DNA from: Escherichia coli
Lineage (GTDB): Bacteria > Pseudomonadota > Gammaproteobacteria > Enterobacterales > Enterobacteriaceae
Length of the DNA stretch: 64,000 nucleotides
Assembly: GCF_024223415.1 (NCBI RefSeq)
Contig: NZ_CP100500.1
Direction: 5' to 3' (one strand)
This document shows, piece after piece, positions 2,841 through 60,428 of this stretch. The notes under the pieces were generated by a model, which saw only the letters and a program-made list of their open reading frames with translations, had not been told where the DNA came from and searched no databases. Each line of letters starts with the position of its first letter. The first letter of the stretch is position 1. Both the position numbers and the translations under genes were made by a program.

Positions 2841-3827
2841 ATGTTTAACATTGCTTTACTGGGCGCTGGCCGAATTGGCCAGGTACATGCAGCTAACATC
2901 GCCAGCCATAGTGCGACCACGCTCTGGTCTGTGGTAGACCCGAATCAGGAGTTCGCCACGCGTCTAGCGACACAGTATCAGGCGCGCCAGCAGAGCCTGG
3001 ATGAGGCGATGACCGATCCGAACGTTCATGCCGTATTGATCGCCTCCGCGACCGACACCCACGCGGATCTGATTGAAATGGCCGCCCGTTACGGCAAAGC
3101 CATTTTCTGTGAAAAACCGGTACACCTTGATCTTGCCCGCGTACGCGACTGCCTGAAAGTGGTCAAAGAGTATGACGTACCGCTGTTTATCGGTTTTAAC
3201 CGCCGCTTTGACCCACAGTTCCGTCGCGTGAAAACCGACACTCAGGCCGGGCGTATCGGCAAACCGGAATCACTGCTGATCATCTCCCGCGATCCGTCTC
3301 CACCGCCTGCGGAGTACGTGCGTGTTTCCGGCGGCATGTTCCGTGATATGACCATCCACGACTTTGACATGGCACGCTTCATCATGGGTGAAGAGCCGGT
3401 GTCGGTGTATGCCCAGGGCAGCAATCTGGTGGATCCGGCGATTGGCGAAGCGGGAGATATCGACACCGCATTTATCGTTCTGAAATATGCCTCCGGCGCG
3501 ATGGCGACCATCGTCAACAGTCGCCGTTCTTCATACGGCTACGACCAGCGCCTGGAGCTACACGGTTCCGAAGGGCTGCTGTGCGCGGGCAATATCCTTG
3601 AAAACCAGGTGCAGCACTACGGCAAACAGGGTTGCACCAGCGCGCTGCCGGAACACTTCTTCCTGCAACGCTACAAATCCGCTTACGCAGCGGAATGGGA
3701 GCACTTTGTTGCGGTTCTGCGCGGCGAAGCGGTGCCTGATTGCAGCGGCGATGATGGTGAACGTGCGCTGTACCTCGCGGATAAAGCGCTGGAATCACTG
3801 CGTTGCCAGCGTGAGATCGTCCTCTAA
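2841..3827 (+). CDS. iolG: myo-inositol 2-dehydrogenase (Gfo/Idh/MocA family)
   Basis: N-terminal Rossmann motif LLGAGRIGQVHA; 328 aa; iol context. Confidence 0.8.
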   Translation: MFNIALLGAGRIGQVHAANIASHSATTLWSVVDPNQEFATRLATQYQARQQSLDEAMTDPNVHAVLIASATDTHADLIEMAARYGKAIFCEKPVHLDLARVRDCLKVVKEYDVPLFIGFNRRFDPQFRRVKTDTQAGRIGKPESLLIISRDPSPPPAEYVRVSGGMFRDMTIHDFDMARFIMGEEPVSVYAQGSNLVDPAIGEAGDIDTAFIVLKYASGAMATIVNSRRSSYGYDQRLELHGSEGLLCAGNILENQVQHYGKQGCTSALPEHFFLQRYKSAYAAEWEHFVAVLRGEAVPDCSGDDGERALYLADKALESLRCQREIVL

Positions 3828-4839: not shown

Positions 4840-6062
4840 ATGTCGCAACCCTTACTGAAAGTAACCGACCTGGCAAAAAGCTTTTCCGGCGTATGGGCGC
4901 TGAGCAGCGCCCAGCTCACCGTCGGCACGGGTGAAATTCACGCTTTGCTGGGCGAAAACGGCGCTGGGAAATCCACGCTGTTGAAGGCACTCGCGGGCGC
5001 ACAGCCACAAACGCGCGGGGAGATCTGGTTCAATGGCGAAACGCTGCCGGTGGACGACTCCCCGGTAGAACGGCAGAACAAGGGCATTATCACCATCTAT
5101 CAGGAATTCAACCTGCTGCCCAATATGACCGTTGCGGAAAACATGTTTCTCGGACGCGAACCGCGTAAACGTAACCTGATCGTCGACGAAAAAGCGGTCA
5201 ATCAGGAAGCGCAGGTGATTCTCGATTATCTGCAGCTGAATGTCGCACCCACCACGCCAGTCGCCCGTCTGAGCGTGGCCCAGCAGCAGATGGTGGAGAT
5301 TGCCCGGGCGCTGACCCTCAATGCCAGGCTGATCATCATGGATGAACCCTCCGCCGCCCTGAGTGACAGCGAGGTGGAAAGCCTGCACCGCGTGGTGCGG
5401 GAGCTTAAAAACCGCGGCGTGAGCATTATTTACGTTACTCACCGTCTGCATGAAGTTTTCCAGCTTTGCGATCGTTTCACCGTTTTCCAGGATGGCCGTT
5501 TCACCGGCACCGGCGCAGTGACGGAGACGAACGTAGAGCAGTTGATCCGCCTGATGGTAGGGCGTGATGTGGCCTTTAACCGCCGCCCTGCCAGCGAAAC
5601 CCACCATGAAGACAAACCTGTCCGTTTGTCGGTGAAGGGGTTAAGCCGGGAAAAACCGCCGCTGGATCCACACGGCATCGCCCTGCATGACATCAGTTTT
5701 CACGTCCATGCAGGGGAAGTTCTGGGTATCGCTGGGCTGGTGGGGGCTGGTCGTACTGAGGTAGCGCGCTGCCTGTTTGGCGCCGACGCCTTTACCACCG
5801 GCAGCTTTGAGCTGGACGGCGTGCCGTACCAGCCGCGTGACCCACTTTATGCGCTGGAGCAAGGGCTGGCGCTGGTGCCGGAAGATCGCAAAAAAGAGGG
5901 GGCGGTGCTGGGTCTGTCGATTCGCGACAACCTGTCGCTCTCCTGCCTCTCCTCGCTGTTGCAGTGGCGCTGGTTTGTGAATACCCGCAAAGAGGACGAC
6001 CTGATTGAGTCCTACCGCCAGGCGCTGCAGATCAAAATGGTCAACAGCACGCAAGAGGTGCG
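4840..6062 (+). pseudogene. sugar ABC transporter ATP-binding protein, 5' part, interrupted by prophage insertion
   Basis: Walker A GENGAGKST, first signature and second Walker A present; homology stops after ...STQEVR at the prophage end; the 3' part resumes at 43682. Confidence 0.85.
6057..6062. repeat. target-site duplication, left copy (GGTGCG; exact length 5 or 6 bp)
   Basis: Both prophage junctions share the octamer AGGTGCGT; duplicated bases flank the element. Confidence 0.6.
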
Positions 6063-6140: not shown

Positions 6141-6700
6141 TTACATTTCAGGTTGCGTTATGACTGTCCCAGCGGGGTGATAGCGGTAGATCGTTGACAG
6201 TCCAATATCATAGATAATTACCAGCCGCTTTCTGTCATACCCTTTCTGGAGCAATCTTGCGATCTGCTCATGCTGCTCCTTCGTCAGTTTCGGGCGACGC
6301 CCTCCAACTCTCCCTTGTGCTCGCGCAGCAGTCAGTCCTGCCAGCGTGCGCTCAACTATCAGTTCACGTTCCATTTCTGCCAGTGCACCCATCATATGAA
6401 AAAAAGAACCTTCCCATCGGAGTGCTGGTATCGATTAAATCCGTCAGACTGCGAAAATTGACACCTTTTGCGCGTAGCTCTTCTGTGAGCGAAATGAGGT
6501 GTTTCATTCTTCTACCCAACCGTTACAGCTTCCAGACCACCAATGTATCCCCTCTTTTAAGGCACCTTAAAGCGCGTTTCAGGCCTGGTCGTTGCGACTT
6601 AGTTCCGCTCATTTGTCCTCAAAAATTTGTTCACATCCTGCGCACATTAATACATTGCGTTTTGGTCATTTGTTGACACACGTATGTAGCCAATCAGCAT
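6141..6700 (-). pseudogene. gin: Gin/Pin-family serine DNA invertase, inactivated
   Basis: Translation gives MLIGYIRVSTNDQN, CAGCEQIFEDK, RPGLKRAL..GDTLVVWKL, HLISL..GRFFF and the C-terminal HTH in different frames; in-frame TAA, a 7-A homopolymer frameshift (6399-6405) and further indels. Confidence 0.8.
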
Positions 6701-6770
6701 CAAAAACACTCCCTTTTGAGTGGTTAAAGTAGTGAGATAATGTGGGGAAGATTTGAGAGATAACCCGCCC

Positions 6771-6803
6771 CCGCAATATCGCATTTAACTATATTGTGAG
6801 GGC
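6771..6803. repeat. 33-bp inverted repeat, copy A
   Basis: CCGCAATATCGCATTTAACTATATTGTGAGGGC; 31 of 33 identical to the reverse complement of 7437-7469. Confidence 0.7.
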
Positions 6804-6815
6804 GCGTGATACCGT

Positions 6816-7430
6816 TCAGCCAGCAAGCGCCAGTGGCGCTTCCGGCCAGCTGATTTCAGGTGCCTTGCTGATATCCAGTGCGTTCAGATCGTCGATATAA
6901 TCCAGCACGGCATTCAGTTTTGCCGTTTCTTCTGGTGTCAGACTGCGACCTGCCCGCAACTTAAGGTTGATGAGGTCGATGGACTTCATCGCCTGATCCA
7001 CCCGTTCCTGGCGTTGCTGTCTGGCAACCTCCAGCTCTTCGGCTTGCTGCCGTTCTGTATCGGTTACCCACGCCTCACCGTTCCAGGTATCCCATGGTGT
7101 GGCAGGCTGTTTTGTCGTTGTCCCTTCCGGGTAGTCACCTGGTTGGGTAATCTGGACCGGATTACCGTTCTCTGTGCTGTATACCGTCTCTCCACGATGA
7201 TCGGGGACATACTCCCACCCGTCCAGCGTGGACGTCCGGCAAATCACGTAACCCGGCATTGCCTCTGGCGGGGCATCGGCGCATGAATGTGCCGGGGTAC
7301 CCACCCCCAGGGCCAGATACTCCACAGAGGATGAGGTGTATTCCCGGGTTTCCTCATCATAGTGATATACAGTGATATCGCCTGCGAAAGTGGCGATACC
7401 GTTTTCATCCAGAACTGCAGTGTTACTCAT
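6816..7430 (-). CDS. tail fibre assembly protein (Mu U-like)
   Basis: 204-aa tail fibre assembly protein sequence; start ATG overlaps the tail-fibre stop (TAATG). Confidence 0.8.
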   Translation of the reverse strand: MSNTAVLDENGIATFAGDITVYHYDEETREYTSSSVEYLALGVGTPAHSCADAPPEAMPGYVICRTSTLDGWEYVPDHRGETVYSTENGNPVQITQPGDYPEGTTTKQPATPWDTWNGEAWVTDTERQQAEELEVARQQRQERVDQAMKSIDLINLKLRAGRSLTPEETAKLNAVLDYIDDLNALDISKAPEISWPEAPLALAG

Positions 7431-9268
7431 TAAACTGCCCTCACAATATAATTAAAAGCGATATTGCGCGGTCTGATCGCTATCCATCTGTCTTTTTCAT
7501 TACTCACCAGCTTACCGGCTCTGGCTATTGCCCATCTGTCAACTGGTTTTGTGCCGTACAGGATGCCGTTACCGGTTCTGGGTTGATCAGGGGTTATGTT
7601 TATGATGTCGTTATCATGTGATGCAAATGAAATCCCTGCCTGAATATCTGCACCTCCCGCTACGCCGTGGTACGCCTGTATGGAGGTACAAATATATGTT
7701 GCTTCCTGTGTGGATAACAATAAGCGTCCCCTGTCAATCATTCGCAGGTCATCCCATCCACGAATAAATTCCCCGCGCAAATCTGGTAGCCTGAGGTCAG
7801 GGTAGGCCACCGCCAGTTTTGGGTATTTTGTACGCGTGAATGCGGCACCGTTGCACTGTAACCACCCCTCAGGTGGTCTTGACGAAGGCCACGGAACGGG
7901 TACGCCAACTGGCAGCGTCGAGCCTTCTCCTAAACCAAGGTAATCAAGAATATCTTTTATGCTTTGTTTACCCATGATGACGCGGGCAACAGACGAAAAA
8001 ACAGGGGCGTCTGTGATCTGAGCCCAGCGATGAGTGTGGGCTGCCGAGGCTTTGCTGTTGGCAAGGTCATACGCAGCTTTAACAGCTTTTGGTGTGGCCG
8101 CCAGCATTTCGGAATTGCTGTTTGTGGCGCTGCTTAGCTGTACGATGCCTTTGCGTCCGGTGGTTGCATCCTGTCCTGTATACTTGCTCGTCAGCATATC
8201 GTGTAAGGCTTTAACCGCTTTGGGGGTGGCGGCCTCAGTCTCTGACTCACTGTTTGTGGCACTGCTCAGCTGTACGGTGCCTTTTGCCGTCAGCGAGGCT
8301 GATGGCACACCTGTTATCTGATTCCACGGGTGGGTGTGGCTGGCGGGTGCTTTACCGGCTGCAAGGTCATATGCAGCCTTGACGGCTTTTGGTGTGGCCG
8401 CCAGCGTTTCGGAATTGCTGTTTGTGGCGCTGCTCAGCTGTACGATGCCTTTGCGTCCGGTGGTTGCATCCTGTCCTGTATACTTGCTCGTCACCATATC
8501 GTGTAAGGCTTTAACCGCTTTGGGGGTGGCGGCCTCAGTCTCTGACTCACTGTTTGTGGCACTGCTCAGCTGTACGGTGCCTTTTGCCGTCAGCGAGGCT
8601 GATGGCACACCTGTTATCTGATTCCACGGGTGGGTGTGGCTGGCGGGTGCTTTACCGGCTGCAAGGTCATATGCAGCCTTGACGGCTTTTGGTGTGGCCG
8701 CCAGCGTTTCGGAATTGCTGTTTGTGGCGCTGCTCAGCTGTACGATGCCTTTGCGTCCGGTGGTTGCATCCTGTCCTGTATACTTGCTCGTCACCATATC
8801 GTGTAAGGCTTTAACCGCTTTGGGGGTGGCGGCCTCAGTCTCTGACTCACTGTTTGTGGCACTGCTCAGCTGTACGGTGCCTTTTGCCGTCAGCGAGGCT
8901 GATGGCACACCTGTTATCTGATTCCACGGGTGGGTGTGGCTGGCGGGTGCTTTACCGGCTGCAAGGTCATATGCAGCCTTGACGGCCTTCGGTGTGGCGG
9001 CCAGTGTTTCAGAAGTGCTGTTTGTGGCGCTGCTCAGTTGGGTGAATCCTTTTTCTGTCAGTGTCGCGTCAGGGTGGTTACGGGAACGTGCGTGTTCAGC
9101 CAGTGACTGTGCGACTTCCTCCGTTTTCTTCTTCAGCCATTTCGTCCTGTTTGCCAGTTGCCGGGGGGCTCGATTTGATATCCCGTCTGCACCACCCAGA
9201 ACCGGATCTGATGTCTCCAGTTGATAGATATTTTCTTCCCACTTTTCTGTTTCATTCAGGTTTCCCAT
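7430..9268 (-). CDS. tail fibre protein (Mu S-like) with internal 100-aa repeats
   Basis: Repeated SSATNS..ETLAATPKAVKAAYDLA..HTHPW motifs; GGGAG RBS before ATG at 9268. Confidence 0.85.
   Translation of the reverse strand: MGNLNETEKWEENIYQLETSDPVLGGADGISNRAPRQLANRTKWLKKKTEEVAQSLAEHARSRNHPDATLTEKGFTQLSSATNSTSETLAATPKAVKAAYDLAAGKAPASHTHPWNQITGVPSASLTAKGTVQLSSATNSESETEAATPKAVKALHDMVTSKYTGQDATTGRKGIVQLSSATNSNSETLAATPKAVKAAYDLAAGKAPASHTHPWNQITGVPSASLTAKGTVQLSSATNSESETEAATPKAVKALHDMVTSKYTGQDATTGRKGIVQLSSATNSNSETLAATPKAVKAAYDLAAGKAPASHTHPWNQITGVPSASLTAKGTVQLSSATNSESETEAATPKAVKALHDMLTSKYTGQDATTGRKGIVQLSSATNSNSEMLAATPKAVKAAYDLANSKASAAHTHRWAQITDAPVFSSVARVIMGKQSIKDILDYLGLGEGSTLPVGVPVPWPSSRPPEGWLQCNGAAFTRTKYPKLAVAYPDLRLPDLRGEFIRGWDDLRMIDRGRLLLSTQEATYICTSIQAYHGVAGGADIQAGISFASHDNDIINITPDQPRTGNGILYGTKPVDRWAIARAGKLVSNEKDRWIAIRPRNIAFNYIVRAV
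7437..7469. repeat. 33-bp inverted repeat, copy B (inside the last codons of the tail-fibre gene)
   Basis: GCCCTCACAATATAATTAAAAGCGATATTGCGC; partner of 6771-6803. Confidence 0.7.
7985..9000 (-). repeat. in-frame tandem repeat, 300-bp unit, about 3.4 copies
   Basis: Near-identical 95-aa antisense ORFs at 8034, 8334, 8634 and 8934 reveal the 300-bp period; sense strand encodes repeated 100-aa units. Confidence 0.7.
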
Positions 9269-9270
9269 AA

Positions 9271-9849
9271 TCAACTTCTCCCGTGGTTATAACTGCCATC
9301 ATGGATGGCGGTATTGTTATAGCGAATGGCCACAGACTGATACTCCAGGCTGGCCAGATGGCAGCGGGCCGGTGCAAATGCAGTGAGCGTCTGACGCAGC
9401 ATCGCGGCCTGATCGTTAGTAATGGGCTGTTTCAGAATAACGCGATAAACCGCCCAGCCTGCTGTATCTCCATGAACAAACAGTCCGTTATGGCTGCGAT
9501 TGCCGTCGTAACTGAGACGACCTGTGCCTTCAATCAGATCCACTTCACCAAAGCCAAAACGGCGGATAACTTCCCGGATTGACCACGGCGTCCCTTTATA
9601 CCGGTGCAGTTCGATGGCTGCTTTTATAAGCATGCGGCGAACATCGTCCGATTCCGCCAGCTCCCAGCCATCGCCAGACAGTGAGAACTGCTCGCCCAGC
9701 CATGGCAGCGCGGAACTGTCGACGATATCGACGAGAAAGACCATCAGTACGCTCAGGTCGATGTTATCCAGCCGTCCTGCCAGTCTTCCCAGCGTCCTGA
9801 GACTGATATCACCCTCAAGCGGTGGCGGGAGTTGTAATGGCTCAGTCAT
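9271..9849 (-). CDS. baseplate/tail protein (P2 gpI-like, Mu gp48-like)
   Basis: 192 aa; position between baseplate J and tail fibre. Confidence 0.75.
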   Translation of the reverse strand: MTEPLQLPPPLEGDISLRTLGRLAGRLDNIDLSVLMVFLVDIVDSSALPWLGEQFSLSGDGWELAESDDVRRMLIKAAIELHRYKGTPWSIREVIRRFGFGEVDLIEGTGRLSYDGNRSHNGLFVHGDTAGWAVYRVILKQPITNDQAAMLRQTLTAFAPARCHLASLEYQSVAIRYNNTAIHDGSYNHGRS

Positions 9850-13221: not shown

Positions 13222-14102
13222 ACACTCCTCGTCAGTATTCTGGCGGCCATTGCACTTAATCGCGGAGACATGCGGTTGAATGCTGTGCCGGCGGCGTTAA
13301 GCTGCCCGGAAACGGTATCCAGAGCACCTGCAATATTTCTTTTGTCCACACCACTCAGCGCAGACTGTGCCTGCTGTATATACGTGGCTGCTTCGCTGGC
13401 TGTTCTGGCCAGACTGATGGCATCGGGCATGGATTCAGAGAGTGCATTAAATGCCGGCACACTTTTCCCCAGAGCGCCGGATATATTACCCAGTCCGCTC
13501 ATCAGTCCCGGCACACGGGTCAGCGCGACAACGGGGTTATCCTTCATTTTCTGCGCCACCCGAACGGCACTGATGGTGGTCTGGAGTACAGACTGCGCCT
13601 GTTTCGCATAGTTGACACCGTTGCGGATGAACTGTGCCCCCCCGGAAGGCGATGGAACGGCACCAGATACGGCCCCGGCACCGGGAACCTGCCTGCGTAT
13701 TGCCGGTGGTTTCAGGGGATTCTTCGGGTCACCGGTGTATTCCCGGAGAGACACGGTTGCGCTGACAGCCAGTACGTTGCCGGTACTGTCAGTCTGCTCG
13801 CTGGTTGCAGTCACATCGGTAATCACGAACCAGGCGCGATAGTCACCGTTGCCGAAGACCAGCGCCAGTGCCTGATGGGCTTTCATGGCTGCCCGAAGTC
13901 TCGCCAGCTCCACGTCGGGCACACAATAATGCTGATGGAAGACCAGACTTATCTGGATTTCGTCCAGCCTGTCGCCGACGAACTGCAGACCGGGCTTACT
14001 CCCGATGCGGGCATGCTCCGCATAATCGACGCCAGACGTGGCCTCGAAGCCGTCCCAGTAGGTAATCAGCTCAAACTCAATATCACCCAGTACGGCAAAC
14101 AT
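13218..14102 (-). CDS. tail protein (P2 gpU-like / Mu N-like)
   Basis: 294 aa; immediately downstream of the tape measure gene. Confidence 0.65.
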   Translation of the reverse strand: MFAVLGDIEFELITYWDGFEATSGVDYAEHARIGSKPGLQFVGDRLDEIQISLVFHQHYCVPDVELARLRAAMKAHQALALVFGNGDYRAWFVITDVTATSEQTDSTGNVLAVSATVSLREYTGDPKNPLKPPAIRRQVPGAGAVSGAVPSPSGGAQFIRNGVNYAKQAQSVLQTTISAVRVAQKMKDNPVVALTRVPGLMSGLGNISGALGKSVPAFNALSESMPDAISLARTASEAATYIQQAQSALSGVDKRNIAGALDTVSGQLNAAGTAFNRMSPRLSAMAARILTRSV

Positions 14103-17100
14103 CAGCGGTACTCCTTACGTTGTTTCTGAGCCAGCAGACGCTCCAGCATTTTTTCCAGCTCATGCAGACTCATATTCAGGGCACCAGTCAGTCCTGCAGG
14201 CGCTGTGGTTTCCCTGCCATTGAGGAAAAACTGAGGATTAAAGCTGACCTGGATACCACCAGACGTTCCACCGCCGGTTGCAGCTGCACCACGGCCTGAA
14301 TATCCGGCAGCCAGGATTTCAGGCGAGGGGATACGGGGAATATCCGGTGCCATCTCATTTGCCAGACGTTGCCCTGGTAAAATCGATGCCCGGGTGGAGA
14401 GCGGAATAGCGGGCATGGAAGACAAACTATTGATTACGGCTCCGATCGCATTTTTAGCAGACGACATAAACCCATTGATATCGGGCAACGGCATACTGAA
14501 GCGAACACCTGAAGTGTTATCCCGTATTTCTGGCCCCTGAATGCTCACGGGCATTTTGGGGAGCAGTTCACTGGCCATTCGCTGCCCGGCCAGAGCTGCA
14601 AGCGGAGTAGTCCGCTGCAGGCCAATGGCGGCCCCCTGCGCGATATTGTCGCCAAAGACCATAAACACGCGGCTCGGCGAATGAATGCCCAGCTTTTCGC
14701 TGAACCAGCCACTGATGCTGTCACCCATTCCGGTTACACTGGATTTGAGCGACTCCCATTTGTTTTTGATACCGTTAATCAGACCATCGACAAGATGGCC
14801 ACCGAAGTCGGTAAACTTTGCCGGCAGATCAACACCAAGATATTTCATCGCAGCTGCAAAGGCTTTATAGAGCAGACCTGCCGGCGACCAGTTAATCAGC
14901 AACTTACCAGTTCCCACAATGCCGCCGTTAAAGGCTTCCTGAATGTCAGCCCAGCACTGTTTAAACCAGCTACTGATGCTGTCACCCATTCCGGTTACAC
15001 TGGATTTGAGCGACCCCCATTTGTTTTTGATACCGTTAATCAGACCGTCGACAAGATGGCCACCGAAGTCGGTGAACTTTGCCGGCAGAGCAACGCCGAA
15101 ATATTTCAGCGCAGCTGCAAAGGCTTTATAGAGCAGGCCTGCCGGCGACCAGTTAATCAGCAACTTACCAGTTCCCACAATGCCGCCGTTAAAGGCTTCC
15201 TGAATGTCAGCCCAGCACTGTTTAAACCAGCTACTGATGCTGTCACCCATTCCGGTTACACTGGATTTGAGCGACCCCCATTTGTTTTTGATACCGTTAA
15301 TCAGACCGTCGACAAGATGGCCACCGAAGTCGGTGAACTTTGCCGGCAGAGCAACGCCGAAATATTTCAGCGCAGCTGCAAAGGCTTTATAGAGCAGGCC
15401 TGCCGGCGACCAGTTAATCAGCAACTTACCAGTTCCCACAATGCCGCCGTTAAAGGCTTCCTGAATGTCAGCCCAGCACTGTTTAAACCAGCTACTGATG
15501 CTGTCACCCATTCCGGTTACACTGGATTTGAGCGACCCCCATTTGTTTTTGATACCGTTAATCAGACCGTCGATAAGATGGCCACCGAAGTCGGTGAACT
15601 TTGCCGGCAGAGCAACGCCGAAATATTTCAGCGCAGCTGCAAAGGCTTTATAGAGCAGACCTGCCGGCGACCAGTTAATCAGCAGCTTACCAGTTCCCGC
15701 GATACCGCCGTTAAAGGCTTCCTGAATGTCAGCCCAGCGCTGTTTAAACCAGCCACTGACTGCCCCCCAGTTGCGGTAGATAAGGTAAGCTGCTGCCGCG
15801 ACAGCGGTGATAACGAGACCGATGGGATTCATCATCAGCGCCCGGCCAATCCAGAGAACGGCACGCCCGGCGATCATAATGCCGCGAACCAGTCCCCCGG
15901 AGAGCACACCACCCAGTGTTCTGACTCCTCTGGCGACGGCACCAAAGCCGGTCACCAACCAGCGAAGCTTACCGCCTTCCCCCAGTGCAAGCGTCAGACG
16001 AAGCCAGTTGGTCCGGAGTAAAACAGCAGTTTTCCAGACGTTCACAAAGGGGGAAATAAGGAGATTCAGCCCCAGTTTGAGACCAATAGTCGCTATCTTA
16101 ATCGCAAGGAGCGCACTGATGAGCTTAAAAGCCCCACTGACAAATTGCGGGTGAGTCGCCACCCAGTGTTTTGCCCCCTGAATGACTGGGATCAGCTCCT
16201 GAGTCAGAGAAATAAAAGAAGGGGCGAGCTGATCGCCCAGCGTAATAGCCAGATCGCGACTGCTGACCATAAGCGCTTTAGTGGCTTCAAGGGGAGATTT
16301 CAGCCGCTGATCGTAAGCACTGGCAAGCAAATCGTTATCCGCAGCCCTGAGAGCACCGGCACGGATCTCGCGATATCTGTCCATGTTGGCCAGCATCGGG
16401 CGGATAAATGCCATGACCTGCATATCCGCGAACATATCGCCCAGACCAAAGTTTTTCGCCAGAGCCTGAAGTGCCTCATCTCTTGCCGTATCATTCTTTA
16501 TTTTCATGGCGGATTTGAAGCCGGCCAGCGCTTCGGGGCTTTTGGCATTGAGGTAACGTTCTATAACACTCAACATCCCTTCAATCGGAGAGATCCCCGC
16601 AGCCTTATAACTCGCAACAGAACCCTGCAAATCAATACCCAGATCAGCAAACTGTTTCTGAGTATCGCGGGCAAAAATTTTGGTAAGAAAGTTTTTAAAA
16701 TTATTGGCTGCTTCGTCGGTGGAGCCCGCACCGATTTTTGCTACCTGGAGACTGGCCCCGATTTCAGCAACAGCCTCTTTTCCACTGGCAATACCCGCCA
16801 TCATTGGGGCCAGGGACTGCATCCACTTGACCTGATCCGGGATTTCAAATGACCCCTGGTCACCGGCATAAGCCATAATATTCTGGACGGCACTAAAATC
16901 TCTGGCGGCACCTTTCAGGGAGTTTTGCCAGACTGCGGCCACTTTTGCCCAGTCCTGAGATGACGTGCGTGTTGCCGTTGCCGCGCGGGCAATATCCGGC
17001 ATCAGAAAACCGATATCTGACAAGTTATCAATATTGTCGCTGATGAGCGAACCCACCGCCTCCTGCAGTTCATCCTGATACTGATTGTATTTTAGCGCCC

Positions 17101-17575
17101 AGCCTTTTATCTGTCCGGCAAGTGCATCCCGCGTTTTATTGTCATATTTTGCGGTGATCGACATATCAATCATTTTGTCCTGAAAAGACATGGACTGCTG
17201 AACGGCAGGGGAAACCGTATGATAAACAGTCTGTGCCATGCCATACGCTTCAATCCCCTGACCATACAGCGCCATGCGGTTAGCTTTCAGCGCATCACTG
17301 GTGGCTGATGCCGCTGACAGACGGCGCTGCTGGCGCTCAATTTGCTCCATGGTGCGGCTTACCCGCAGCAGCTCGCTGTTGAGATGCTGCATCCGGGAAG
17401 AGCCCAGTTGACCATAACGTTCTGTTGCACGGGTTAAAGCGTTCTGACGTTCCTGCAGGCGGCGTGAGGTATCGCTCAGGGAATCAAGCGCACGGCGGGT
17501 ACCGCTCATTGCAGAACGGAATGTGCTGCCAATCATCCCGCCGATAACAACGCCGACTGAAAACTGTCCCGACAT
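14102..17575 (-). CDS. tail tape measure protein with five tandem 87-aa repeats
   Basis: About 1157 aa; coiled-coil N-terminus, hydrophobic core, repeated WFKQCWADIQEAFNGG... unit; start taken at ATG 17575 with GGAGG RBS (track ORF extends to 17635). Confidence 0.85.
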   Translation of the reverse strand: MSGQFSVGVVIGGMIGSTFRSAMSGTRRALDSLSDTSRRLQERQNALTRATERYGQLGSSRMQHLNSELLRVSRTMEQIERQQRRLSAASATSDALKANRMALYGQGIEAYGMAQTVYHTVSPAVQQSMSFQDKMIDMSITAKYDNKTRDALAGQIKGWALKYNQYQDELQEAVGSLISDNIDNLSDIGFLMPDIARAATATRTSSQDWAKVAAVWQNSLKGAARDFSAVQNIMAYAGDQGSFEIPDQVKWMQSLAPMMAGIASGKEAVAEIGASLQVAKIGAGSTDEAANNFKNFLTKIFARDTQKQFADLGIDLQGSVASYKAAGISPIEGMLSVIERYLNAKSPEALAGFKSAMKIKNDTARDEALQALAKNFGLGDMFADMQVMAFIRPMLANMDRYREIRAGALRAADNDLLASAYDQRLKSPLEATKALMVSSRDLAITLGDQLAPSFISLTQELIPVIQGAKHWVATHPQFVSGAFKLISALLAIKIATIGLKLGLNLLISPFVNVWKTAVLLRTNWLRLTLALGEGGKLRWLVTGFGAVARGVRTLGGVLSGGLVRGIMIAGRAVLWIGRALMMNPIGLVITAVAAAAYLIYRNWGAVSGWFKQRWADIQEAFNGGIAGTGKLLINWSPAGLLYKAFAAALKYFGVALPAKFTDFGGHLIDGLINGIKNKWGSLKSSVTGMGDSISSWFKQCWADIQEAFNGGIVGTGKLLINWSPAGLLYKAFAAALKYFGVALPAKFTDFGGHLVDGLINGIKNKWGSLKSSVTGMGDSISSWFKQCWADIQEAFNGGIVGTGKLLINWSPAGLLYKAFAAALKYFGVALPAKFTDFGGHLVDGLINGIKNKWGSLKSSVTGMGDSISSWFKQCWADIQEAFNGGIVGTGKLLINWSPAGLLYKAFAAAMKYLGVDLPAKFTDFGGHLVDGLINGIKNKWESLKSSVTGMGDSISGWFSEKLGIHSPSRVFMVFGDNIAQGAAIGLQRTTPLAALAGQRMASELLPKMPVSIQGPEIRDNTSGVRFSMPLPDINGFMSSAKNAIGAVINSLSSMPAIPLSTRASILPGQRLANEMAPDIPRIPSPEILAAGYSGRGAAATGGGTSGGIQVSFNPQFFLNGRETTAPAGLTGALNMSLHELEKMLERLLAQKQRKEYR
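14640..15750 (-). repeat. in-frame tandem repeat, 261-bp unit, about 4.5 copies
   Basis: Antisense ORFs at 14685, 14943, 15204 and 15465 are near-identical; sense strand repeats an 87-aa unit. Confidence 0.7.
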
Positions 17576-17650
17576 AGTGGTTAACCTCCGGGGAAGGTGA
17601 AAAGACGTGAGGGGATAACGCAGAACAGCCGCCACTGGCGGCTGTCTGTA

Positions 17651-35775: not shown

Positions 35776-37545
35776 ATGACCCCGGCACTGACTGAAAAAC
35801 TTGTTGAAACAGCCCGCGCGGCACGTAATGCAGGGCATGGTAAACGCGGTGCAATATACGACGCTGCCTGTGCTGAACTTGGCATGTCCCGCGCCACTCT
35901 GCTGCGCAGGCTGAAGGAGGTCTCTGTGACTGATAAACGCAAAAAACGCGCCGATGCCGGACGCAGCACCCTGACCCGCGACGAAGCCGCGCTGATATCT
36001 GCCACACTACGTGAGGCCACCCGCAAGAACGGTAAGCGTCTCTATTCCATCGCGGATGCAGTGGAAACCCTGCGGGCTAACGGCTTTATCTCCGCAGGCA
36101 GAACAGATGAAACCACCGGTGAGTTTTTCCCGTTGTCCGAAGATGCCATCAGTCGTGCCCTGCGTAACTATGGCCTGCACCCGGAACAACTGGATGCCCC
36201 TGCACCGCATACCGAAGTGGCCAGTCTGCACCCCAATCATGTCTGGCAGATTGACGCCTCACTCTGCACGCTTTACTACCTGAGCAATGGACATAAAGGG
36301 CTGCAGGTGATGGACAGCGCGAAATTCTACAAGAACAAGCCCGCTAACCTTGCCCGTATCGCCAGTGACCGCGTGTGGAGTTACGAGATTACCGACCATG
36401 CCAGCGGCTGGATTTACGTTGAGTATGTGACGGGTGCGGAATCCGGTGAGAACCTGTGTTCTGTGCTTATCAACGCCATGCAGGAGCGTGGCGGCGCAGA
36501 CGTGCTGCACGGCGTGCCAAAAATACTCTATCTCGACCCCGGCTCGGCAAACACCGCGGGTATGACGAAAAACATGTGCCGCTCACTGGGCATCGACCTG
36601 ATAGCGCACAAGCCGCATAACGCCCGCGCCACCGGACAGGTGGAAAAGGCGCGTGACATTATCGAACGCAAGCTGGAGCCGGGTCTGAAGTTCCGGCCGG
36701 TTCACAGTCTGGAAGAACTCAACGCGCTGGCCGCGAAATGGCGCAGCCACTTTAACGCCACGGCTGTTCACAGCCGCCACGGTAAAACCCGCACGGATAT
36801 CTGGCTGAAGATTACTGCTGAGCAGCTGAAAAAAGCGCCTTCCGTTGAGGTATGTCGTGAACTGGCTGTGGCGGCACCAGAACTCCGCAAAGTCACGCCA
36901 AAACTTCGTGTCTCGTTCCGGGGCACTGAATTTGACGTATCAACGGTACCGGGCGTACTGGTCGGTGAAAAACTGATGATTACCCGTAACCCGTGGCGCA
37001 GCGATGTGGCACAGGTGGTTCTGACCGGTGAGGACGGCCACGAGACGTTCTTCCTGGTCGAAGAGGTCAGAAAGAACGAGTTTGGCTTTGCTGAAGGCGC
37101 GGCGGTATTTGGCGAAAGTTACAAAGCCCTGCCGGAAACCCCGGCGCAGATGGCGGCAAAAGAAACCGAAGCGCTGGTCACCGGTACAGACAACGCCGCA
37201 GATGCAGCTGCCGCACGCAAGGCGAAGGCGCTGCCGTTCGGCGGGCGGCTTGACCCGTATAAACATATTGATGACGCCACACTTCCGGCCTGTATACCGA
37301 AGCGTGGTCAGGCCTCTGACGTACGCGGACCGCGCACTGAACAGCGTCCCATGACTCATGTGGAGGCCGCGAAAGCCCTGCGCGGGAAGTTTAGCGCAAA
37401 CGGCCTGACCTGGACGCCGGAACATTACCGCCAGTTAACGGCACAGTACCCGGACGGCGTACCGGAAGCCGCACTGGATGAAGTCATGGCCACGCTGACC
37501 ACGCCGGCCCGCAGCAGCGTTATCAGCATTGTTAACGGCAACTGA
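35776..37545 (+). CDS. DDE transposase (Mu A-like)
   Basis: 589 aa; N-terminal HTH, integrase-core-like region (HVWQIDASL...), followed by the B-like ATPase. Confidence 0.85.
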   Translation: MTPALTEKLVETARAARNAGHGKRGAIYDAACAELGMSRATLLRRLKEVSVTDKRKKRADAGRSTLTRDEAALISATLREATRKNGKRLYSIADAVETLRANGFISAGRTDETTGEFFPLSEDAISRALRNYGLHPEQLDAPAPHTEVASLHPNHVWQIDASLCTLYYLSNGHKGLQVMDSAKFYKNKPANLARIASDRVWSYEITDHASGWIYVEYVTGAESGENLCSVLINAMQERGGADVLHGVPKILYLDPGSANTAGMTKNMCRSLGIDLIAHKPHNARATGQVEKARDIIERKLEPGLKFRPVHSLEELNALAAKWRSHFNATAVHSRHGKTRTDIWLKITAEQLKKAPSVEVCRELAVAAPELRKVTPKLRVSFRGTEFDVSTVPGVLVGEKLMITRNPWRSDVAQVVLTGEDGHETFFLVEEVRKNEFGFAEGAAVFGESYKALPETPAQMAAKETEALVTGTDNAADAAAARKAKALPFGGRLDPYKHIDDATLPACIPKRGQASDVRGPRTEQRPMTHVEAAKALRGKFSANGLTWTPEHYRQLTAQYPDGVPEAALDEVMATLTTPARSSVISIVNGN

Positions 37546-37555
37546 GGAGGGAAAC

Positions 37556-38722
37556 ATGCTGGTACTGAAGCAGCAACTGAAAGAGGCCCGTATTCCACAG
37601 GCGGTGGCGGCGAGAGCTGTCGATGTTTCTGAGGCCACGCTGGCCCAGATTGTGAATCATAACGCGTGGCCCCGCACCAGCCCCGGAGAAGTGCGCCGGC
37701 GTCTTGCGTCCTGGCTGGAAAGTCAGGGGATTGATACAACGAAGAGTTTTGATGCTGTACAGGGCGCGGCCACGCCCCGTACAGCGAGTACCACAGATAA
37801 AACGAGCCTCAGTGAGGAAGAGAATATGTTACTCAAAAAACAGGTGTTATTTCCAGCAACCAAAAAAGCGTTTGGTCTTTTCCGTGACCCGTTCGCCGAC
37901 GAAGCCATGCAGGGTTCTGATGATGTGTTCACCACCCCGGACATTCGCTACGTGCGTGAGGCGCTGTACCAGACAGCCCGTCATGGTGGGTTTATGGCCG
38001 TCATCGGTGAGTCCGGTGCGGGTAAATCCACGCTGCGCCGCGACCTGACTGAACGTATTAACCGCGAGAATGCGCCGGTAATTGTTATCGAGCCATACAT
38101 CATTGCCATGGAAGACAACGATGTGAAAGGGAAAACCCTGAAGGCTGCAGCGATTGCCGAAGCCATTATCAGTACCATCGCACCACTGGAAAGCATCAGA
38201 CGCAGTCAGGACGCCCGCTTTCGCCAGTTGCATCGCGTCCTGAAAGGCAGCAGCCAGGCGGGGTTCAGCCACGTTCTGGTGATTGAGGAGGCCCACAGTC
38301 TGCCCATTCCGACACTGAAACACCTCAAACGCTTTTTTGAGCTGGAGTCCGGTTTCAAAAAACTGCTGTCCATCGTGCTGATTGGCCAGCCGGAACTGGC
38401 GACAAAACTGTCTGAACGCAATATGGAAGTCCGTGAAGTCGTTCAGCGCTGTGAGGTGGTCGAACTTCTGCCTCTGGACAATAACCTTGAAGAATTTCTG
38501 ACGTTCAAACTGCAACGGGCCGGTAAACAACTGACGGACATTATGGACGCCAGCGCAGTGGATGCCATACGTGCCCGCCTGAGCAATCCGGGAAGTCATC
38601 GTAAAAATATGGTCAGCCTGCTGTATCCGCTGGCCGTCAGTAACCTGGTAATAGCCGCCATGAATCTGGCCGCTGAAATCGGGGTTCCACAGGTCAACGC
38701 TGACGTTGTCAAAGGAGTTTAA
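37556..38722 (+). CDS. transposition ATPase (Mu B-like, AAA+)
   Basis: Walker A GESGAGKST, Walker B HVLVIEEAH; GAGGAGG RBS before ATG 37556. Confidence 0.85.
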   Translation: MLVLKQQLKEARIPQAVAARAVDVSEATLAQIVNHNAWPRTSPGEVRRRLASWLESQGIDTTKSFDAVQGAATPRTASTTDKTSLSEEENMLLKKQVLFPATKKAFGLFRDPFADEAMQGSDDVFTTPDIRYVREALYQTARHGGFMAVIGESGAGKSTLRRDLTERINRENAPVIVIEPYIIAMEDNDVKGKTLKAAAIAEAIISTIAPLESIRRSQDARFRQLHRVLKGSSQAGFSHVLVIEEAHSLPIPTLKHLKRFFELESGFKKLLSIVLIGQPELATKLSERNMEVREVVQRCEVVELLPLDNNLEEFLTFKLQRAGKQLTDIMDASAVDAIRARLSNPGSHRKNMVSLLYPLAVSNLVIAAMNLAAEIGVPQVNADVVKGV

Positions 38723-39844: not shown

Positions 39845-40113
39845 TTACCCCACAGGAAGCACGACAGCGCACCCGAACCCTTGTTGAACACTATGTCAAC
39901 GAGTGTGAATGTCGCGACCTCACCGATGTGAAGCACGTCCTGACGGCGCTAATCAGCATGGCCACACAGGCCATTGTGGCAACCAACGGAAAGGCGGCTG
40001 CCCTGCAGGTACTGATGAACACACTCACCCACACGGCAGAGCATGAGGTGCCGTACCGGATGGAAACCACTGCAGAAGGCGGCCTGCACATCACCGTCAG
40101 CCGGAAGCACTGA
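39841..40113 (+). CDS. hypothetical protein (90 aa)
   Basis: Translationally coupled to the Com-like ORF. Confidence 0.5.
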   Translation: MITPQEARQRTRTLVEHYVNECECRDLTDVKHVLTALISMATQAIVATNGKAAALQVLMNTLTHTAEHEVPYRMETTAEGGLHITVSRKH

Positions 40114-40122
40114 GGGTGCGGC

Positions 40123-40419
40123 ATGACACGAAACACCGAACTCACCCGCACCGCCCTCTACCGTCTGGCCCTGCAGCGTTTCGGGCCGGATGCACAGGCC
40201 CTGAAACTGACAGAAGAGGCCGCTGAACTGGCGGCCAGTGCTGCCCGCAACCTGAACGGACAGGGCAGCGAAAGTGACCTCGCGGCAGAGCTGGCAGACG
40301 TGGAAATCATGACAGAGCAACTGCGCCTTCAGGGGATGGACCGGCTGATTGACTTCCACAAACAGAAAAAACTGGAACGTCTGGCTGCACGACTGGGCGT
40401 GATTTACACGAACGAGTAA
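40123..40419 (+). CDS. MazG-like nucleotide pyrophosphohydrolase candidate
   Basis: EExxE ... ExxD acidic motif pattern (EEAAELAAS ... AAELADVE) in a 98-aa all-alpha protein. Confidence 0.5.
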   Translation: MTRNTELTRTALYRLALQRFGPDAQALKLTEEAAELAASAARNLNGQGSESDLAAELADVEIMTEQLRLQGMDRLIDFHKQKKLERLAARLGVIYTNE

Positions 40420-40645
40420 CCGGGAGGCATTCAATGGCTGACATACTCAGGGAAATCACCGCATGGACACTGATTCTTACTGGTCTGGCGACATGCCTCA
40501 GTGCGGGAGCAGCCCTGGCTGCCCTGCTGATGCACATAACAACACAGTGGTTATGAGAAAAGCTTAAAGCAGCATACAGCCTGAAAGAGCTGTCCGACGC
40601 TGTCCGGGCATGGAAACGGCAGAAAAATACCGGAGATACAGAACA

Positions 40646-41329
40646 ATGACAGACCAGAATAAACACATTGAGAAACTGAAAAAGTTGCTGGCGCTGGCCG
40701 CATCCGGCAACCCGCATGAGGCTGCTCTGGCACTGCGCCGCGCCCGTAAACTGATGGATGTTCACGGCATCACACATTCCGACATCGCCATGAGTGATAT
40801 TGATGAAACCATCAGTCACTACTGGCCGACAGGCAGCCTCCGTCCGCCGCGCTACATGCCAGGGCTGATGAACATCATCCGCGAGGCATTTGGTGTTAAC
40901 TCCATCATTCACCCCGGCACATATCCGGGTGTGGGGTTCTACGGCAAACGGGAACGGGCCGCACTGGCCGCGTACACCTGGGAAGTGCTGGCCCGTCAGC
41001 TGAAAAAGGCGCGTCAGCAGTATATCAGTGCACAGAACAAAAGAATAAAAACCGCCACCCGCACCAGCCGTGGAGACCAGTTTGCTGAAGGCTGGGTGCT
41101 GGCCGTTATCAGTGAAATACAGTCCTTCGCCCTGACCAATGACGAACGTGAACTGATGCAGCAGTGGCTGGAACATAAATACCCGCAGACGCAAACCACC
41201 AGGGCGCGTAAACCGGGAAGAAGTCGCAATGGCGACGCCTCGCGCTATGCGGGGTTTCGAGAAGGGCAGAACGTCAGACTGCACCGACCGGTCAGTGGGC
41301 GGGAACAGCAGAAACTGGAGGCCAGATGA
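40646..41329 (+). CDS. hypothetical early protein with conserved N-terminal helical domain
   Basis: Start at ATG 40646; N-terminal IEKLKKLLALAASGNPHEAALALRRARKLM. Confidence 0.55.
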   Translation: MTDQNKHIEKLKKLLALAASGNPHEAALALRRARKLMDVHGITHSDIAMSDIDETISHYWPTGSLRPPRYMPGLMNIIREAFGVNSIIHPGTYPGVGFYGKRERAALAAYTWEVLARQLKKARQQYISAQNKRIKTATRTSRGDQFAEGWVLAVISEIQSFALTNDERELMQQWLEHKYPQTQTTRARKPGRSRNGDASRYAGFREGQNVRLHRPVSGREQQKLEAR

Positions 41330-43681: not shown

Positions 43682-43687
43682 GGTGCG
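43682..43687. repeat. target-site duplication, right copy (GGTGCG)
   Basis: Matches 6057-6062. Confidence 0.6.
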
Positions 43688-44012
43688 TAAGCTCTCTGGC
43701 GGCAACCAGCAGAAAGTTATCCTCGCGCGCTGCATGGCGCTCAATCCACGGGTGTTGATTGTCGATGAGCCGACGCGTGGCATCGACGTTGGAACCAAAT
43801 CGGAAGTGCACCAGGTGTTGTTTGATATGGCGAAAAAGGGCGTGGCGGTGATCGTGATCTCCTCCGATCTGCTTGAAGTGATGGCGGTGTCTGACCGGAT
43901 CATCACCCTTAGTGAAGGCCGGTTAACTGGCGAGATCCACGGTGACGACGCTAACGAAGAACGGCTGATGACGATGATGGCTATCAACCACAACGCCCTG
44001 AACGCGGCATAA
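43682..44012 (+). pseudogene. sugar ABC transporter ATP-binding protein, 3' part
   Basis: Begins in frame with the second ABC signature (LSGGNQQKV) and Walker B (LIVDEPT); continues the ORF broken at 6062. Confidence 0.85.
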
Positions 44013-53834: not shown

Positions 53835-54032
53835 GTGAGATTGCTGTTAAAAGGGCTCGTCGGAATGGCGCTGGTCTGGCTTGTTATTGGTTTCGGGATG
53901 GAGTTATTTTTTCTCGCCGATCGGGTTCATCCGGCATTAAGAGTAATCGTTGGCCTGGGGATGTTATTCCTGATGATAATGATTGCGGGTGGTATGTGCG
54001 GTTCTCTTCTGTCACGAAAGAAAACATCATGA
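53835..54032 (+). CDS. small membrane protein
   Basis: GTG start with GGAGAGG RBS; two hydrophobic helices. Confidence 0.35.
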   Translation: MRLLLKGLVGMALVWLVIGFGMELFFLADRVHPALRVIVGLGMLFLMIMIAGGMCGSLLSRKKTS

Positions 54033-54166
54033 CGTTCCTGTTTACGCCGTTACATTTGTGGCGGCGGATGATACCTGTTTTATGATTATTCAGAAAAATG
54101 TATTTACCTGTCACGGCATGTTCAGCGAGCGGCGCCGGACAGAAATATCGCTTTTACTCAATTATT

Positions 54167-55771: not shown

Positions 55772-55867
55772 TTCATTAAAGTAATTTACTTCGCTATCCT
55801 TTTTCCAGTTACTCACAAAGAAAAATATTCAGAAAATAATTCCCGGGTTGGCAGCCCGGGATGATTA

Positions 55868-56143
55868 CTATTTTAATGGATTGTTAATCTTTGCATATTC
55901 AAACGGGCTGATACATTGTTCTCTGTTCGCATCCAGAAAATCTGCCCACCACTGTAGCATCAGTCGACGTTCTTCCAGATGTTCTGCTTTATGGATATAC
56001 GCAGCACGTACACCATTACGCTCCTGATGACTCATCTGACGTTCCACTGCATCGCGGGACCACAAACCTGATTTAATCAATGCACTGCACGCCATCGCCC
56101 GGAATCCATGGCCACAGACCTCTTCCTGCGTATTGTATCTCAT
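55868..56143 (-). pseudogene. C-terminal remnant of a tyrosine integrase
   Basis: ..GHGFRAMA..RQMSH..R..YIH..LQWWADFLD.. parallels the C-terminus of the intact integrase at 59068-60252; no N-terminal domain. Confidence 0.6.
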
Positions 56144-56451
56144 CAGTCTCAGTGCGTTATTGACCGTATTTTAACTAACGAGCTTGTGCCTGATTACCAA
56201 TAATTATCAGTTCATATTTTATGCAGACTTGTGCCAATCACTTGTTTTGAAAGAGGTTCTAAGATTCGTTGCATGCATTCTTGACCCTCAATGGTAATGT
56301 CTCGTTAAATATGATAGATATTAGCCGTAATTTTATTTTAGCGGGGTCGGTAAATTGGGGTGGAATTAGTCGATAAAAATATTAGAATACACTATTTTGC
56401 AGGCAAAATAGTGATATGATACATTTTTGTGTAAATTTATAAGGAGATAAG

Positions 56452-58468: not shown

Positions 58469-59067
58469 GTTAACTCACTTAATGCTCATTAATCTTCCTA
58501 GTATAACGATATTTATCAAACAAAACCATAGCTACATTTTAAACTAAAAGTAGCTAATAAGAACGATTGAATGACTTAATTTATATAAATAAGATATCCA
58601 GTATTGATACATCATGTGTTCAGCATGATGTATGTGCAACTGAAGCATCATTCGAAGTTTTCCTCAATATTCATATTCTGCATATATGCTATTCCAGATA
58701 ACTGGCCTGCCATTCGATATTATGACGAAGCCTGATTATGCTAATGCATCATACGCTATAACCCGGTATTTATGGCCACAGATATTTTGGATTGTGTCAT
58801 CTCCTGTAACCTTAAGGGGGGGATTGACGGTGTTTTATCTGCTTGCCCTGTGAGTACATGCATTTCCATAACATTCAGGCTATTTTCACCTACCGGAATC
58901 TGAAGTTCAGTCAGTATGCCTGCAACCTGTTTATGGTGTTGAACAGGGTTCAATAGCAGAATTTGGGCTTCTGGAGTGAGTTCAGAATGTGTTGGTAAAT
59001 CAAGCCACAATAAAACCGTTCAGTGGTCTGACTGGATGGCTCGTTATTATATCCACAGAGCTCTCAT

Positions 59068-60252: not shown

Positions 60253-60320
60253 ATGGGGGCTCCTGAAACTGACTGAACACAATGAGCCCCCACCGGTGCC
60301 CCCAATGAACGCTTGATTGA

Positions 60321-60410
60321 GAGAGAGTTCAGTAGAGTTCGGTGGAGTTCAGGATGTTCAGATTGCTTGTAACGATGTGATTATACTTGAGTTTCGTGGA
60401 GTTCGGGAGA
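60321..60410. repeat. phased GAGTTC-type direct repeats (candidate integrase arm-type sites)
   Basis: GAGTTC at 60325, 60335 and 60345 with 10-bp spacing, further GTTC variants to 60407, between int and tRNA. Confidence 0.4.
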
Positions 60411-60428
60411 TGAATCTGGAAGTGAAAG

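Follow-up and report, generated by a model that had tools for sequence, protein, structure and literature searches.

The region studied here very probably lies at the right end of a transposable, Mu-like prophage and has decayed, with a broken Gin-type tail-fibre switch and a fibre tip that is locked. It lies in the window, by which we mean the whole 64,000-nucleotide stretch of E. coli DNA that was analysed. The locus is a decayed member of a known system and is ordinary, since the gene for the flipping enzyme is broken, the spare tips have been deleted, and the inverted repeats that draw attention to it are merely the shared last codons of two tips. Its importance is mostly one of correct annotation, and we suggest that annotators treat it as a Gin switch that has been pseudogenised and has an orphan gix site left, rather than as a minimal inversion unit of a new kind.

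The prophage and its insertion site

The prophage is of the BcepMu/phiE255 type and occupies 37.6 kb at 6063-43681 on the minus strand, with ends TGATGCG...CTGATCA and the switch region at its right end. Its late genes are read from the minus strand, its transposase genes from the plus strand. Both of the proteins expected of a Mu-like phage, a DDE transposase and a MuB-like transposition ATPase, are present, the transposase being encoded at 35776-37545 (phrog_310, E=7.7e-147) and the MuB-like DNA transposition protein at 37529-38722 (phrog_296, E=5e-93). Other PHROG matches in the prophage are to tape measure, sheath, major head, portal and terminase.

The prophage splits a host ABC-transporter ATPase gene at 6062/6063, and the gene resumes at 43682. 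The rebuilt empty site aligns unbroken to uninterrupted orthologues of the ABC gene. The target-site duplication, read from the sequence as (G)GTGCG, has its left copy at 6057-6062 and its right copy at 43682-43687; its length is ambiguous, at 5 or 6 bp, and a rebuilt site with both copies has 4 extra bases relative to the orthologues. With regard to transposition, the element thus has TG...CA ends, a short target duplication and many unrelated sites, as the relatives and the allele with the dead gin gene each adjoin many different genes. The nearest species representatives that have the ABC gene uninterrupted are from Enterobacter and Lelliottia, at ~90%. The Enterobacter-like host that this suggests was rejected, as the exact host proteins are recorded under E. 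coli. The ABC gene adjoins inositol-catabolism genes, and nothing close to these was found in complete E. coli genomes.

The gin pseudogene

The pseudogene of the Gin-family serine invertase lies at 6141-6700 on the minus strand, as shown by alignment to the intact 190-aa genes of E. coli relatives, to which it is ~96% identical in nucleotide sequence. The product of an intact gene matches the Mu Gin structures 4m6f and 3uj3 (E=2e-93), and shares 138 of its 190 residues with Mu Gin. The sequence-only reading had noted four breaks in the reading frame, and all were found in the alignment. First, 13 bp have been deleted at 6661/6662 (reference codons 14-18, following VSTNDQ); second, an A-run at 6614/6615 has lost one base (codon 34, following EDK); third, GAT has become the stop codon TAA at 6523-6525 (Asp64 of KLDRLGR); and fourth, there is one additional homopolymer base at 6399-6405, where there are 7 A on the plus strand and 6 in the relatives. 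The intact small serine recombinase of an inversion switch, with a catalytic domain and C-terminal HTH, is absent from the window.

As two of the four lesions are in homopolymer runs, it might be argued that the frame breaks are errors of sequencing or assembly, homopolymer miscalls especially, and that the invertase is intact and the switch active. We regard this as extremely unlikely. The 13-bp deletion and the two-base change to TAA are not homopolymer errors, and all four lesions, including the homopolymer length for which a check had been advised, recur identically in at least 15 independent assemblies from different samples and insertion sites, which rules out sequencing error. Furthermore even an intact Gin would have no substrate, since the partner gix and spare tips are absent.

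Within the remnant an 84-codon ORF (6141-6395) still encodes the E-helix and the helix-turn-helix domain, and its product has a precomputed Pfam match to HTH_7 and a weak match to Resolvase. These matches, and the listing of the exact 84-aa product by 370 blocks of a public collection, could be taken to mean that the remnant has been retained as a small protein that binds DNA, with the orphan gix as one conceivable target. This seems to us very improbable, because the copies of the dead allele are near-identical over the whole region, non-coding parts included, so that conservation of the 84 residues comes from recent common descent and not from selection; in addition no promoter-like site was found for the 84-codon ORF.

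The tail-fibre gene and tfa

The tail-fibre gene is intact in the ORF listing (7430-9274, minus strand). Its constant shaft contains tandem repeats of 300 nt at 8011-9052, and the part downstream of the gix site (7433-7937) encodes a tip of ~165 aa. The near-identical fibre product in L006 has Pfam matches to Phage_fiber_2 and Collar. The tfa gene for tail-fibre assembly (a chaperone) is also listed as an intact ORF (6816-7430, minus strand), and is directly downstream of the fibre gene, its ATG overlapping the fibre stop codon. An identical 204-aa product has precomputed matches to Caudo_TAP_N and Caudo_TAP (PF28596 and PF02413), and we thus have a Caudo_TAP domain protein encoded directly after the fibre gene, as for the chaperones of the P2 gpG or Mu U type. 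An NCBIfam search gave no useful name for either tfa or the fibre. A sigma-70-like promoter that could express tfa or a cassette from the gin side was looked for, and none was found. A 161-aa match that might have been the window tip as a silent cassette elsewhere was rejected, because it proved to be a fibre gene, in P2-like prophages, that is truncated where the contig stops.

Intact relatives

The intact E. coli relatives have a Gin orthologue and, between gin and tfa, 1-3 silent tip cassettes of 400-500 nt. Sites of 26 bp and of gix type head every cassette and also sit in the fibre gene, at the edges of 229-nt inverted repeats. There are 2-4 tips in total and a single tfa tied to one of them. 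The module is present in 613 of the 5,426 complete E. coli genomes, with gin and tfa on the same strand in 304 genomes, tfa flipped relative to the baseplate genes in 221, and tfa antisense to the expressed fibre in ~40% of those with scorable orientation; in all of these counts the genomes are phylogenetically non-independent.

In ST131 strains both orientations are found at one insertion site (serC-aroA). A preprint (10.1101/2022.05.07.487787) describes tail-fibre rearrangements in the invertase-carrying prophages of ST131 isolates, confirmed by PCR for two isolates, and labels the ST131 relative both Burkho_phiE255 and Bcepmuvirus. Both orientations are thus seen for the intact relatives and not for the window lineage, in which all 16 of the 16 loci read share one orientation. 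This agrees with the earlier suggestion that the locus is frozen in one orientation, and the suggestion that it is a relic of a G-segment-type host-range switch is well supported by the relatives, with their Gin orthologue, gix sites, spare tips and two orientations.

The orphan gix site and the lost cassettes

A gix-type site, TTCTTGATTACC TT GGTTTAGGAGAA, lies at 7925-7950 on the minus strand, at the junction of shaft and tip inside the fibre gene. Its position matches that of the fibre-gene site of the relatives, which marks the outer edge of the 229-nt inverted repeats there. Of its 26 positions 17, with ACC-NN-GGTTTA among them, agree with Mu gix (TTATCCAAAACC TC GGTTTACAGGAA, taken from NC_000929). 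No second copy was found in the window with 3 mismatches allowed, so that in place of two inverted 26-bp crossover sites there is one site and an outer half-site at 6752-6763. Comparison with the relatives identifies the sequence at 6745-6763 on the plus strand (..TTGAGAGATAA) as the left half of the gin-proximal gix. In the relatives this gix is GAGAGATAAACG TT GGTTTGGGGGAA, whereas in the window we find GAGAGATAA joined directly to CCCGCCCCC.

The deletion junction, mapped against three intact relatives, is thus at 6763/6764, and the silent cassette or cassettes and the partner gix are gone. There is ATAA microhomology at the junction with the L005-type cassette end. An exact search for the junction in one-genome-per-species contigs and IMG/VR viral contigs gave no match. 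On the other side, next to tfa, is a stub comprising the last ~40 nt of a silent fibre-tip cassette (6764-6812, plus strand), which includes the left arm of the inverted repeat (6769-6803) and has codons for RPRNIAFNYIVRA at 6766-6804. Over 39 nt the stub matches the end of the L003 cassette (5565-5603) without a difference, and a 1-nt deletion has taken away the stop codon of the stub. This ~40-nt stub is all that the window has of alternative, oppositely oriented 3' cassettes.

The inverted repeat around tfa

A repeat search gave arms of 35 nt at 6769-6803 and 7437-7471, complementary at 32 of 35 positions, which form the longest inverted repeat in 44 kb. The motif occurs at only two places in the window, as against 0.00 expected in shuffles. 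A 33-bp repeat at 6771-6803 and 7437-7469 had been described before, and it is indeed present, with 30 of 33 positions identical and not the 31 that were claimed. The right arm (minus strand) is made of the closing codons (PRNIAFNYIVRA) of the expressed fibre gene and falls within its final 14 codons, and the left arm ends 12 nt beyond the tfa stop codon. The remark that the repeats have no gix core stands, as on comparison with Mu gix they lack ACC-NN-GGT.

On the evidence of sequence comparison the repeat arises where two fibre-tip coding sequences converge, each arm being the final 13 codons (RPRNIAFNYIVRA) of one of them, and it is not a pair of recombination sites. Among 22 copies there are 7 distinct DNA versions and 2 peptides, and 11 of the 14 variable columns are third codon positions; with variation so nearly all synonymous it is the peptide that is conserved and not a DNA site. 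We suggest that the inverted repeat is a by-product of the 13 terminal residues common to every tip, since stub and expressed tip converge on tfa. The proposal that the repeats are the edges of a "minimal" invertible unit around tfa finds no support, as the crossover sites of the relatives are gix-type 26-mers elsewhere, at the heads of the fibre tips and ~0.5 kb upstream of each repeat. Inverted-repeat finders should not score the 35-nt repeats as recombination sites.

A switch that flips tfa only, with the 33-35-nt repeats as its crossover sites and an invertase in trans or homologous recombination to drive it, would account for repeats that closely bracket tfa and are 91% identical, and in principle such a flip could restore co-orientation of tfa after the large inversion seen in the relatives. 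However the reading is close to refuted and we give it very little weight. Apart from the missing core and the almost wholly synonymous variation among copies, junction queries against the 5,426 E. coli genomes led us to reject flipping of tfa alone between the 35-nt repeats: the junction of tip A and tfa is unbroken in 597 of 619 E. coli genomes, 221 of them with the large inversion, and it is the whole tip-tfa-tip block that inverts. The single orientation at 16 of 16 loci in the window lineage also argues against it.

Proposed history and spread of the dead allele

For the decayed Gin switch that we prefer, we propose an ancestor with the arrangement seen in the relatives, in which a Gin-type invertase recombined the gix at the shaft/tip junction with the inverted gix sites heading 1-3 promoterless cassettes, located between gin and tfa. 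Each event would have inverted the block of tip A, tfa, tip B and any further tips, and so changed the tip fused to the shaft. An illegitimate deletion, using the ATAA microhomology, would have removed the silent cassette or cassettes together with the gin-proximal gix, leaving the last ~40 nt of the tfa-side cassette. Once the orphan gix was alone and the spare tips were gone, gin would have been without a target, and may then have gathered the 13-bp deletion, two 1-bp frameshifts and finally the stop codon. This order, with deletion of cassettes first and neutral decay of gin after, is the one that we infer. The outcome would be a locked switch with tip A and tfa co-transcribed, in a phage that spreads with one fixed tip.

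The dead allele was located through exact-protein look-ups, and the identical allele lies beside at least 12 different flanks. The presence of the same multi-lesion allele at at least 12 insertion sites indicates that the phage kept spreading with a fixed tip. One sister locus has a flank that is 100% E. coli; in a search of complete E. coli genomes the allele was absent. The phage with the dead switch is probably still active, to judge from a prophage that looks complete and an allele that is at many insertion sites. A phage lineage without a host-range switch that is nonetheless at many insertion sites offers a natural fixed-tip control for the worth of the switch.

One could go further and combine these observations in a reading in which the family differs from Mu in one respect, having 2-4 tips with a common 13-residue end and a single tfa that inverts along with tip A only, and the window lineage is a selected "locked" variant that is still spreading. 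We think this possible and rather unlikely. Under this reading it may be that Tfa is not needed for folding of the other tips, or that expression of tfa does not depend on its orientation, and the window lineage may have been fixed in the only state that co-transcribes fibre and chaperone, which goes beyond mere decay. The intact relatives are common and are a multi-tip, single-tfa system, and could be used to test the need of collar-domain tips for Tfa.

Comparison with known systems

With regard to the G segment of Mu, the invertase of the relatives is a Gin orthologue, as seen in the match to PDB 4m6f, and the crossover site is at the junction of constant and variable parts of the fibre, with the ACC-NN-GGTTTA core common with Mu gix. 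As in Mu, gin lies a short way in from the right end of a transposable phage and tfa follows the fibre gene. In contrast to Mu, gin is a pseudogene in the window, with a single gix and no alternative tip, and the intact relatives have 2-4 tips and one tfa where Mu has two complete S/U pairs. The prophage backbone also differs, being BcepMu-like, with transposase genes on the opposite strand to the late genes.

The resemblance to BcepMu and phiE255 (Bcepmuvirus) extends to the DDE transposase and MuB-like protein, the TG...CA ends and short target duplication, seemingly near-random insertion sites, and tail and baseplate genes that are P2-like. The Gin-type fibre switch at the end of the element is noted here for the enterobacterial branch, and the statement covers that branch.

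The defective E. coli prophages e14 (pin), Rac (pinR) and Qin (pinQ) have relic invertase and stf/tfa loci. They are similar in that a Gin-family invertase gene adjoins tail-fibre and tfa genes in a prophage, with a switch that is perhaps non-functional; the difference is that the window prophage looks complete and its dead allele is at many insertion sites. To our knowledge pin of e14 is not broken, unlike the window invertase.

In the case of the C segment of P1, with Cin, and of Min in p15B, serine invertases work on fibre-tip cassettes. The relatives are like these in having several cassettes, and the crossover site at the head of every cassette forms the outer edge of a longer inverted repeat (229 nt), whereas the window copy has lost all of this structure. 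The module, its invertase and tfa proteins identical, is also present in E. coli plasmids of ~93 kb that are P1-like. There it ends exactly at the Mu-type terminal sequence and adjoins a truncated resident invertase gene, and this arrangement suggests that the plasmid module was imported from a transposable phage and is not due to common descent.

The locus as a decayed switch

The locus is best classed as a decayed example of a known switch. It once functioned as the Mu G segment does with Gin, and its multi-cassette relatives also resemble P1 Cin and p15B Min. The tail-fibre gene (7430-9274, minus strand) is followed on the same strand by the tail-fibre assembly gene tfa (6816-7430), whose ATG overlaps the fibre stop codon, and by a broken invertase (gin) frame (6141-6700). 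In three E. coli loci with an intact switch (L003-L005) the 190-aa recombinase hits crystal structures 4m6f and 3uj3 of Mu Gin at E=2e-93 and shares 138 identical positions with Mu Gin. Aligned to these three genes, gin has all four lesions proposed in the sequence-only reading: a 13-bp deletion at 6661/6662, a 1-bp deletion at 6614/6615, GAT changed to TAA at 6523-6525, and one base added to the run at 6399-6405.

The fibre shaft, the constant part of the gene, has 3.5 tandem copies of a 300-nt unit (8011-9052, 75-92% identical, Phage_fiber_2 repeats); copy number differs between relatives, and fibre lengths range from 314 to 643 aa.

Crossover sites and cassette deletion

Between gin and tfa, relatives of the L003-L005 type have, on the opposite strand, one to three promoterless cassettes for the fibre tip, the variable 3' part of the gene. 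Each opens with ..TAAACG TT GGTTTGGGGGAA. This opening lies outermost in a 229-nt inverted repeat of the fibre gene, which at the matching place reads ..ATTACC TT GGTTTAGGAGAA. The Mu gix sites read TTATCCAAAACC TC GGTTTACAGGAA in NC_000929, and on this comparison the crossover sites are gix-type. The window retains the fibre-gene site (7925-7950, minus strand, TTCTTGATTACC TT GGTTTAGGAGAA); a second gix-type site was looked for in the window and not found. Aligned to the relatives, the window reads GAGAGATAA/CCCGCCCCCGCAAT at the junction of a deletion that starts within the outer half of the gin-proximal gix and stops 13 codons short of the cassette end, with ATAA microhomology provided that the ancestor resembled L005.

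The inverted repeat around tfa

The repeats said to bracket tfa do form an inverted repeat (6769-6803 and 7437-7471; 35 nt, 32/35 complementary). None longer is present in the 7-kb neighbourhood or in 44 kb, and the motif is confined to these two arms in the 64-kb window, where shuffles expect 0.00 matches. Within the 33-nt limits first proposed the identity is 30/33 on recount, not 31/33. However, the arms are not crossover sites but the shared coding ends of tips, and the gix-type sites are at the shaft/tip junction about 0.5 kb upstream. All tips, expressed and silent, end in RPR(N/S)IA(F/L)NYIVRA, and the 22 copies of these terminal codons in 9 loci comprise 7 DNA versions encoding only 2 peptides, with 11 of the 14 variable columns at third codon positions. 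The window arms differ at three positions, each synonymous. The left arm is the final ~40 nt of a silent cassette that is always tail to tail with tfa, and the repeats bracket tfa only because it sits between two convergent tips with shared last codons.

Inversion in relatives

A query with flipped tfa joined to the baseplate genes was covered in full by 221 E. coli genomes; 304 cover the reference arrangement, in which gin and tfa share a strand. Flipped examples have the order gin(-), tip A(+), tfa(+), tip B(-), shaft(-), tip A being the tip joined to tfa, and this is the exact product of a single inversion between gix sites. In 597 of 619 genomes tip A and tfa are joined without a break. 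Flipping of tfa alone between the repeats was considered and rejected, as the junction counts in E. coli show the whole block inverting. Both orientation states are present for the serC-aroA insertion in ST131 strains. Tail-fibre gene rearrangements have been described in invertase-carrying prophages of ST131 isolates, with PCR confirmation for two (preprint 10.1101/2022.05.07.487787), and programmed inversions in prophage fibre genes have been catalogued systematically (PMC9881135).

In intact relatives on E. coli chromosomes (L022, L023, L024) there are two to four tips, only one of them linked to tfa. Where tfa is flipped, in the 221 genomes, it runs antisense to the expressed fibre; a promoter-like site reading in from the gin side was looked for and not found.

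The suggestion of a relic of a G-segment-type switch is borne out. The homology to Gin, the site positions and the natural inversion in relatives are established, as is the loss from the window of gin, the partner site and the spare tips; among the defining features of a functional switch, the locus lacks an unbroken invertase, a pair of sites, cassettes to choose between and a second orientation seen in nature. The cassette deletion would have come first, followed by neutral decay of gin, and the locked state would express tip A together with Tfa.

Distribution and history of the dead allele

By exact-protein look-up the window tfa and 84-aa gin remnant are on many contigs. This dead allele was absent from the 5,426 complete E. 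coli genomes searched. All 15 contigs that were aligned share the cassette deletion, the 13-bp deletion and the two 1-bp frameshifts in identical form. Past the phage end every one of them has a different sequence, so that no fewer than 12 separate insertion sites are represented; one of the flanks matches E. coli mutT-yacG-zapD at 100%. The lesions are therefore real, and the homopolymer and other frame breaks are not sequencing artefacts. From the different insertion sites we infer that the phage went on infecting new strains after the switch was lost, and it would appear to be still viable. Codon 64 is GAA, not TAA, in two contigs (L030 and L032, with start codon ATT), and thus the stop codon is the latest lesion (GAT to GAA to TAA). 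These draft contigs, of P1-like context, carry a dead-allele sub-lineage beside a second, diverged Mu-type end (TGATGTGCCGCGCGATAAATG..) that precedes holin, LydB and DarA genes.

The module in other elements

The same module of invertase, cassette and tfa is carried by P1-like plasmids of ~93 kb (E. coli plasmid pKY1497_2, L036 3468-4151; H136-H143), the invertase and Tfa being identical at the protein level. The homology stops only with the final base of the Mu-type right end, where the start of another invertase gene (its first ~11 codons, ..LIGYIRISTND/TGATGCG) adjoins it, next to a holin gene. Such an arrangement looks like a fibre module imported by transposition, with recombination following. 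P2-like prophages on E. coli draft contigs (L037-L039) encode a fibre tip with 98% aa identity to that of the window, together with a 203-aa tfa, directly beside a gpU gene and without an invertase. The tip-tfa pair is therefore in circulation in at least three types of phage. Neither these occurrences nor the single tfa of multi-tip relatives changes our verdict on the locus.

The prophage and its surroundings

A sugar ABC-transporter ATPase ORF starting at 4840 loses frame at 6062/6063, and its missing C-terminus (..LSGGNQQKV..) picks up again at 43682. The 37.6-kb insert between the halves starts with TGATGCG, ends with CTGATCA and has (G)GTGCG flanking both sides; the two flanks when joined align end to end with uninterrupted orthologues. 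The insert's plus-strand genes include those for a Mu-type transposase and a MuB-like protein, and its minus-strand genes those for tape measure, sheath, head, portal and terminase; it is therefore a transposable prophage of BcepMu/phiE255 layout. Close relatives (92-94% nt identity) are in ~613 of 5,426 complete E. coli genomes and adjoin many different truncated host genes, as transposition predicts.

The host here is an Escherichia, and its transporter has presumably been inactivated by the prophage. The split gene (4840-6062 and 43682-44012) adjoins inositol-catabolism genes, with an IolD-like gene at 631-2556 and inositol 2-dehydrogenase at 2841-3827. This flank has no near match among complete E. 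coli genomes although exact matches of the host proteins beside the prophage carry the name E. coli, and it is thus probably an accessory island.

Within the tape-measure gene (14102-17635) a 28-nt partly palindromic motif (AGCAACGCCGAAATATTTCAGCGCAGCT) has three copies at 261-nt spacing (15089-15638), probably reflecting an 87-codon tandem repeat. Near the prophage left end two minus-strand ORFs of 161 and 325 aa (39949-41284) interrupt an otherwise plus-strand early region and may be accessory cargo; the 325-aa ORF had no match in PHROG. Only about half the length of 54000-60500 is matched in E. coli genomes, at 97.6% identity, and the matched tRNA-Phe, tyrosine integrase and phosphoethanolamine transferase suggest a tRNA-Phe-associated island junction.
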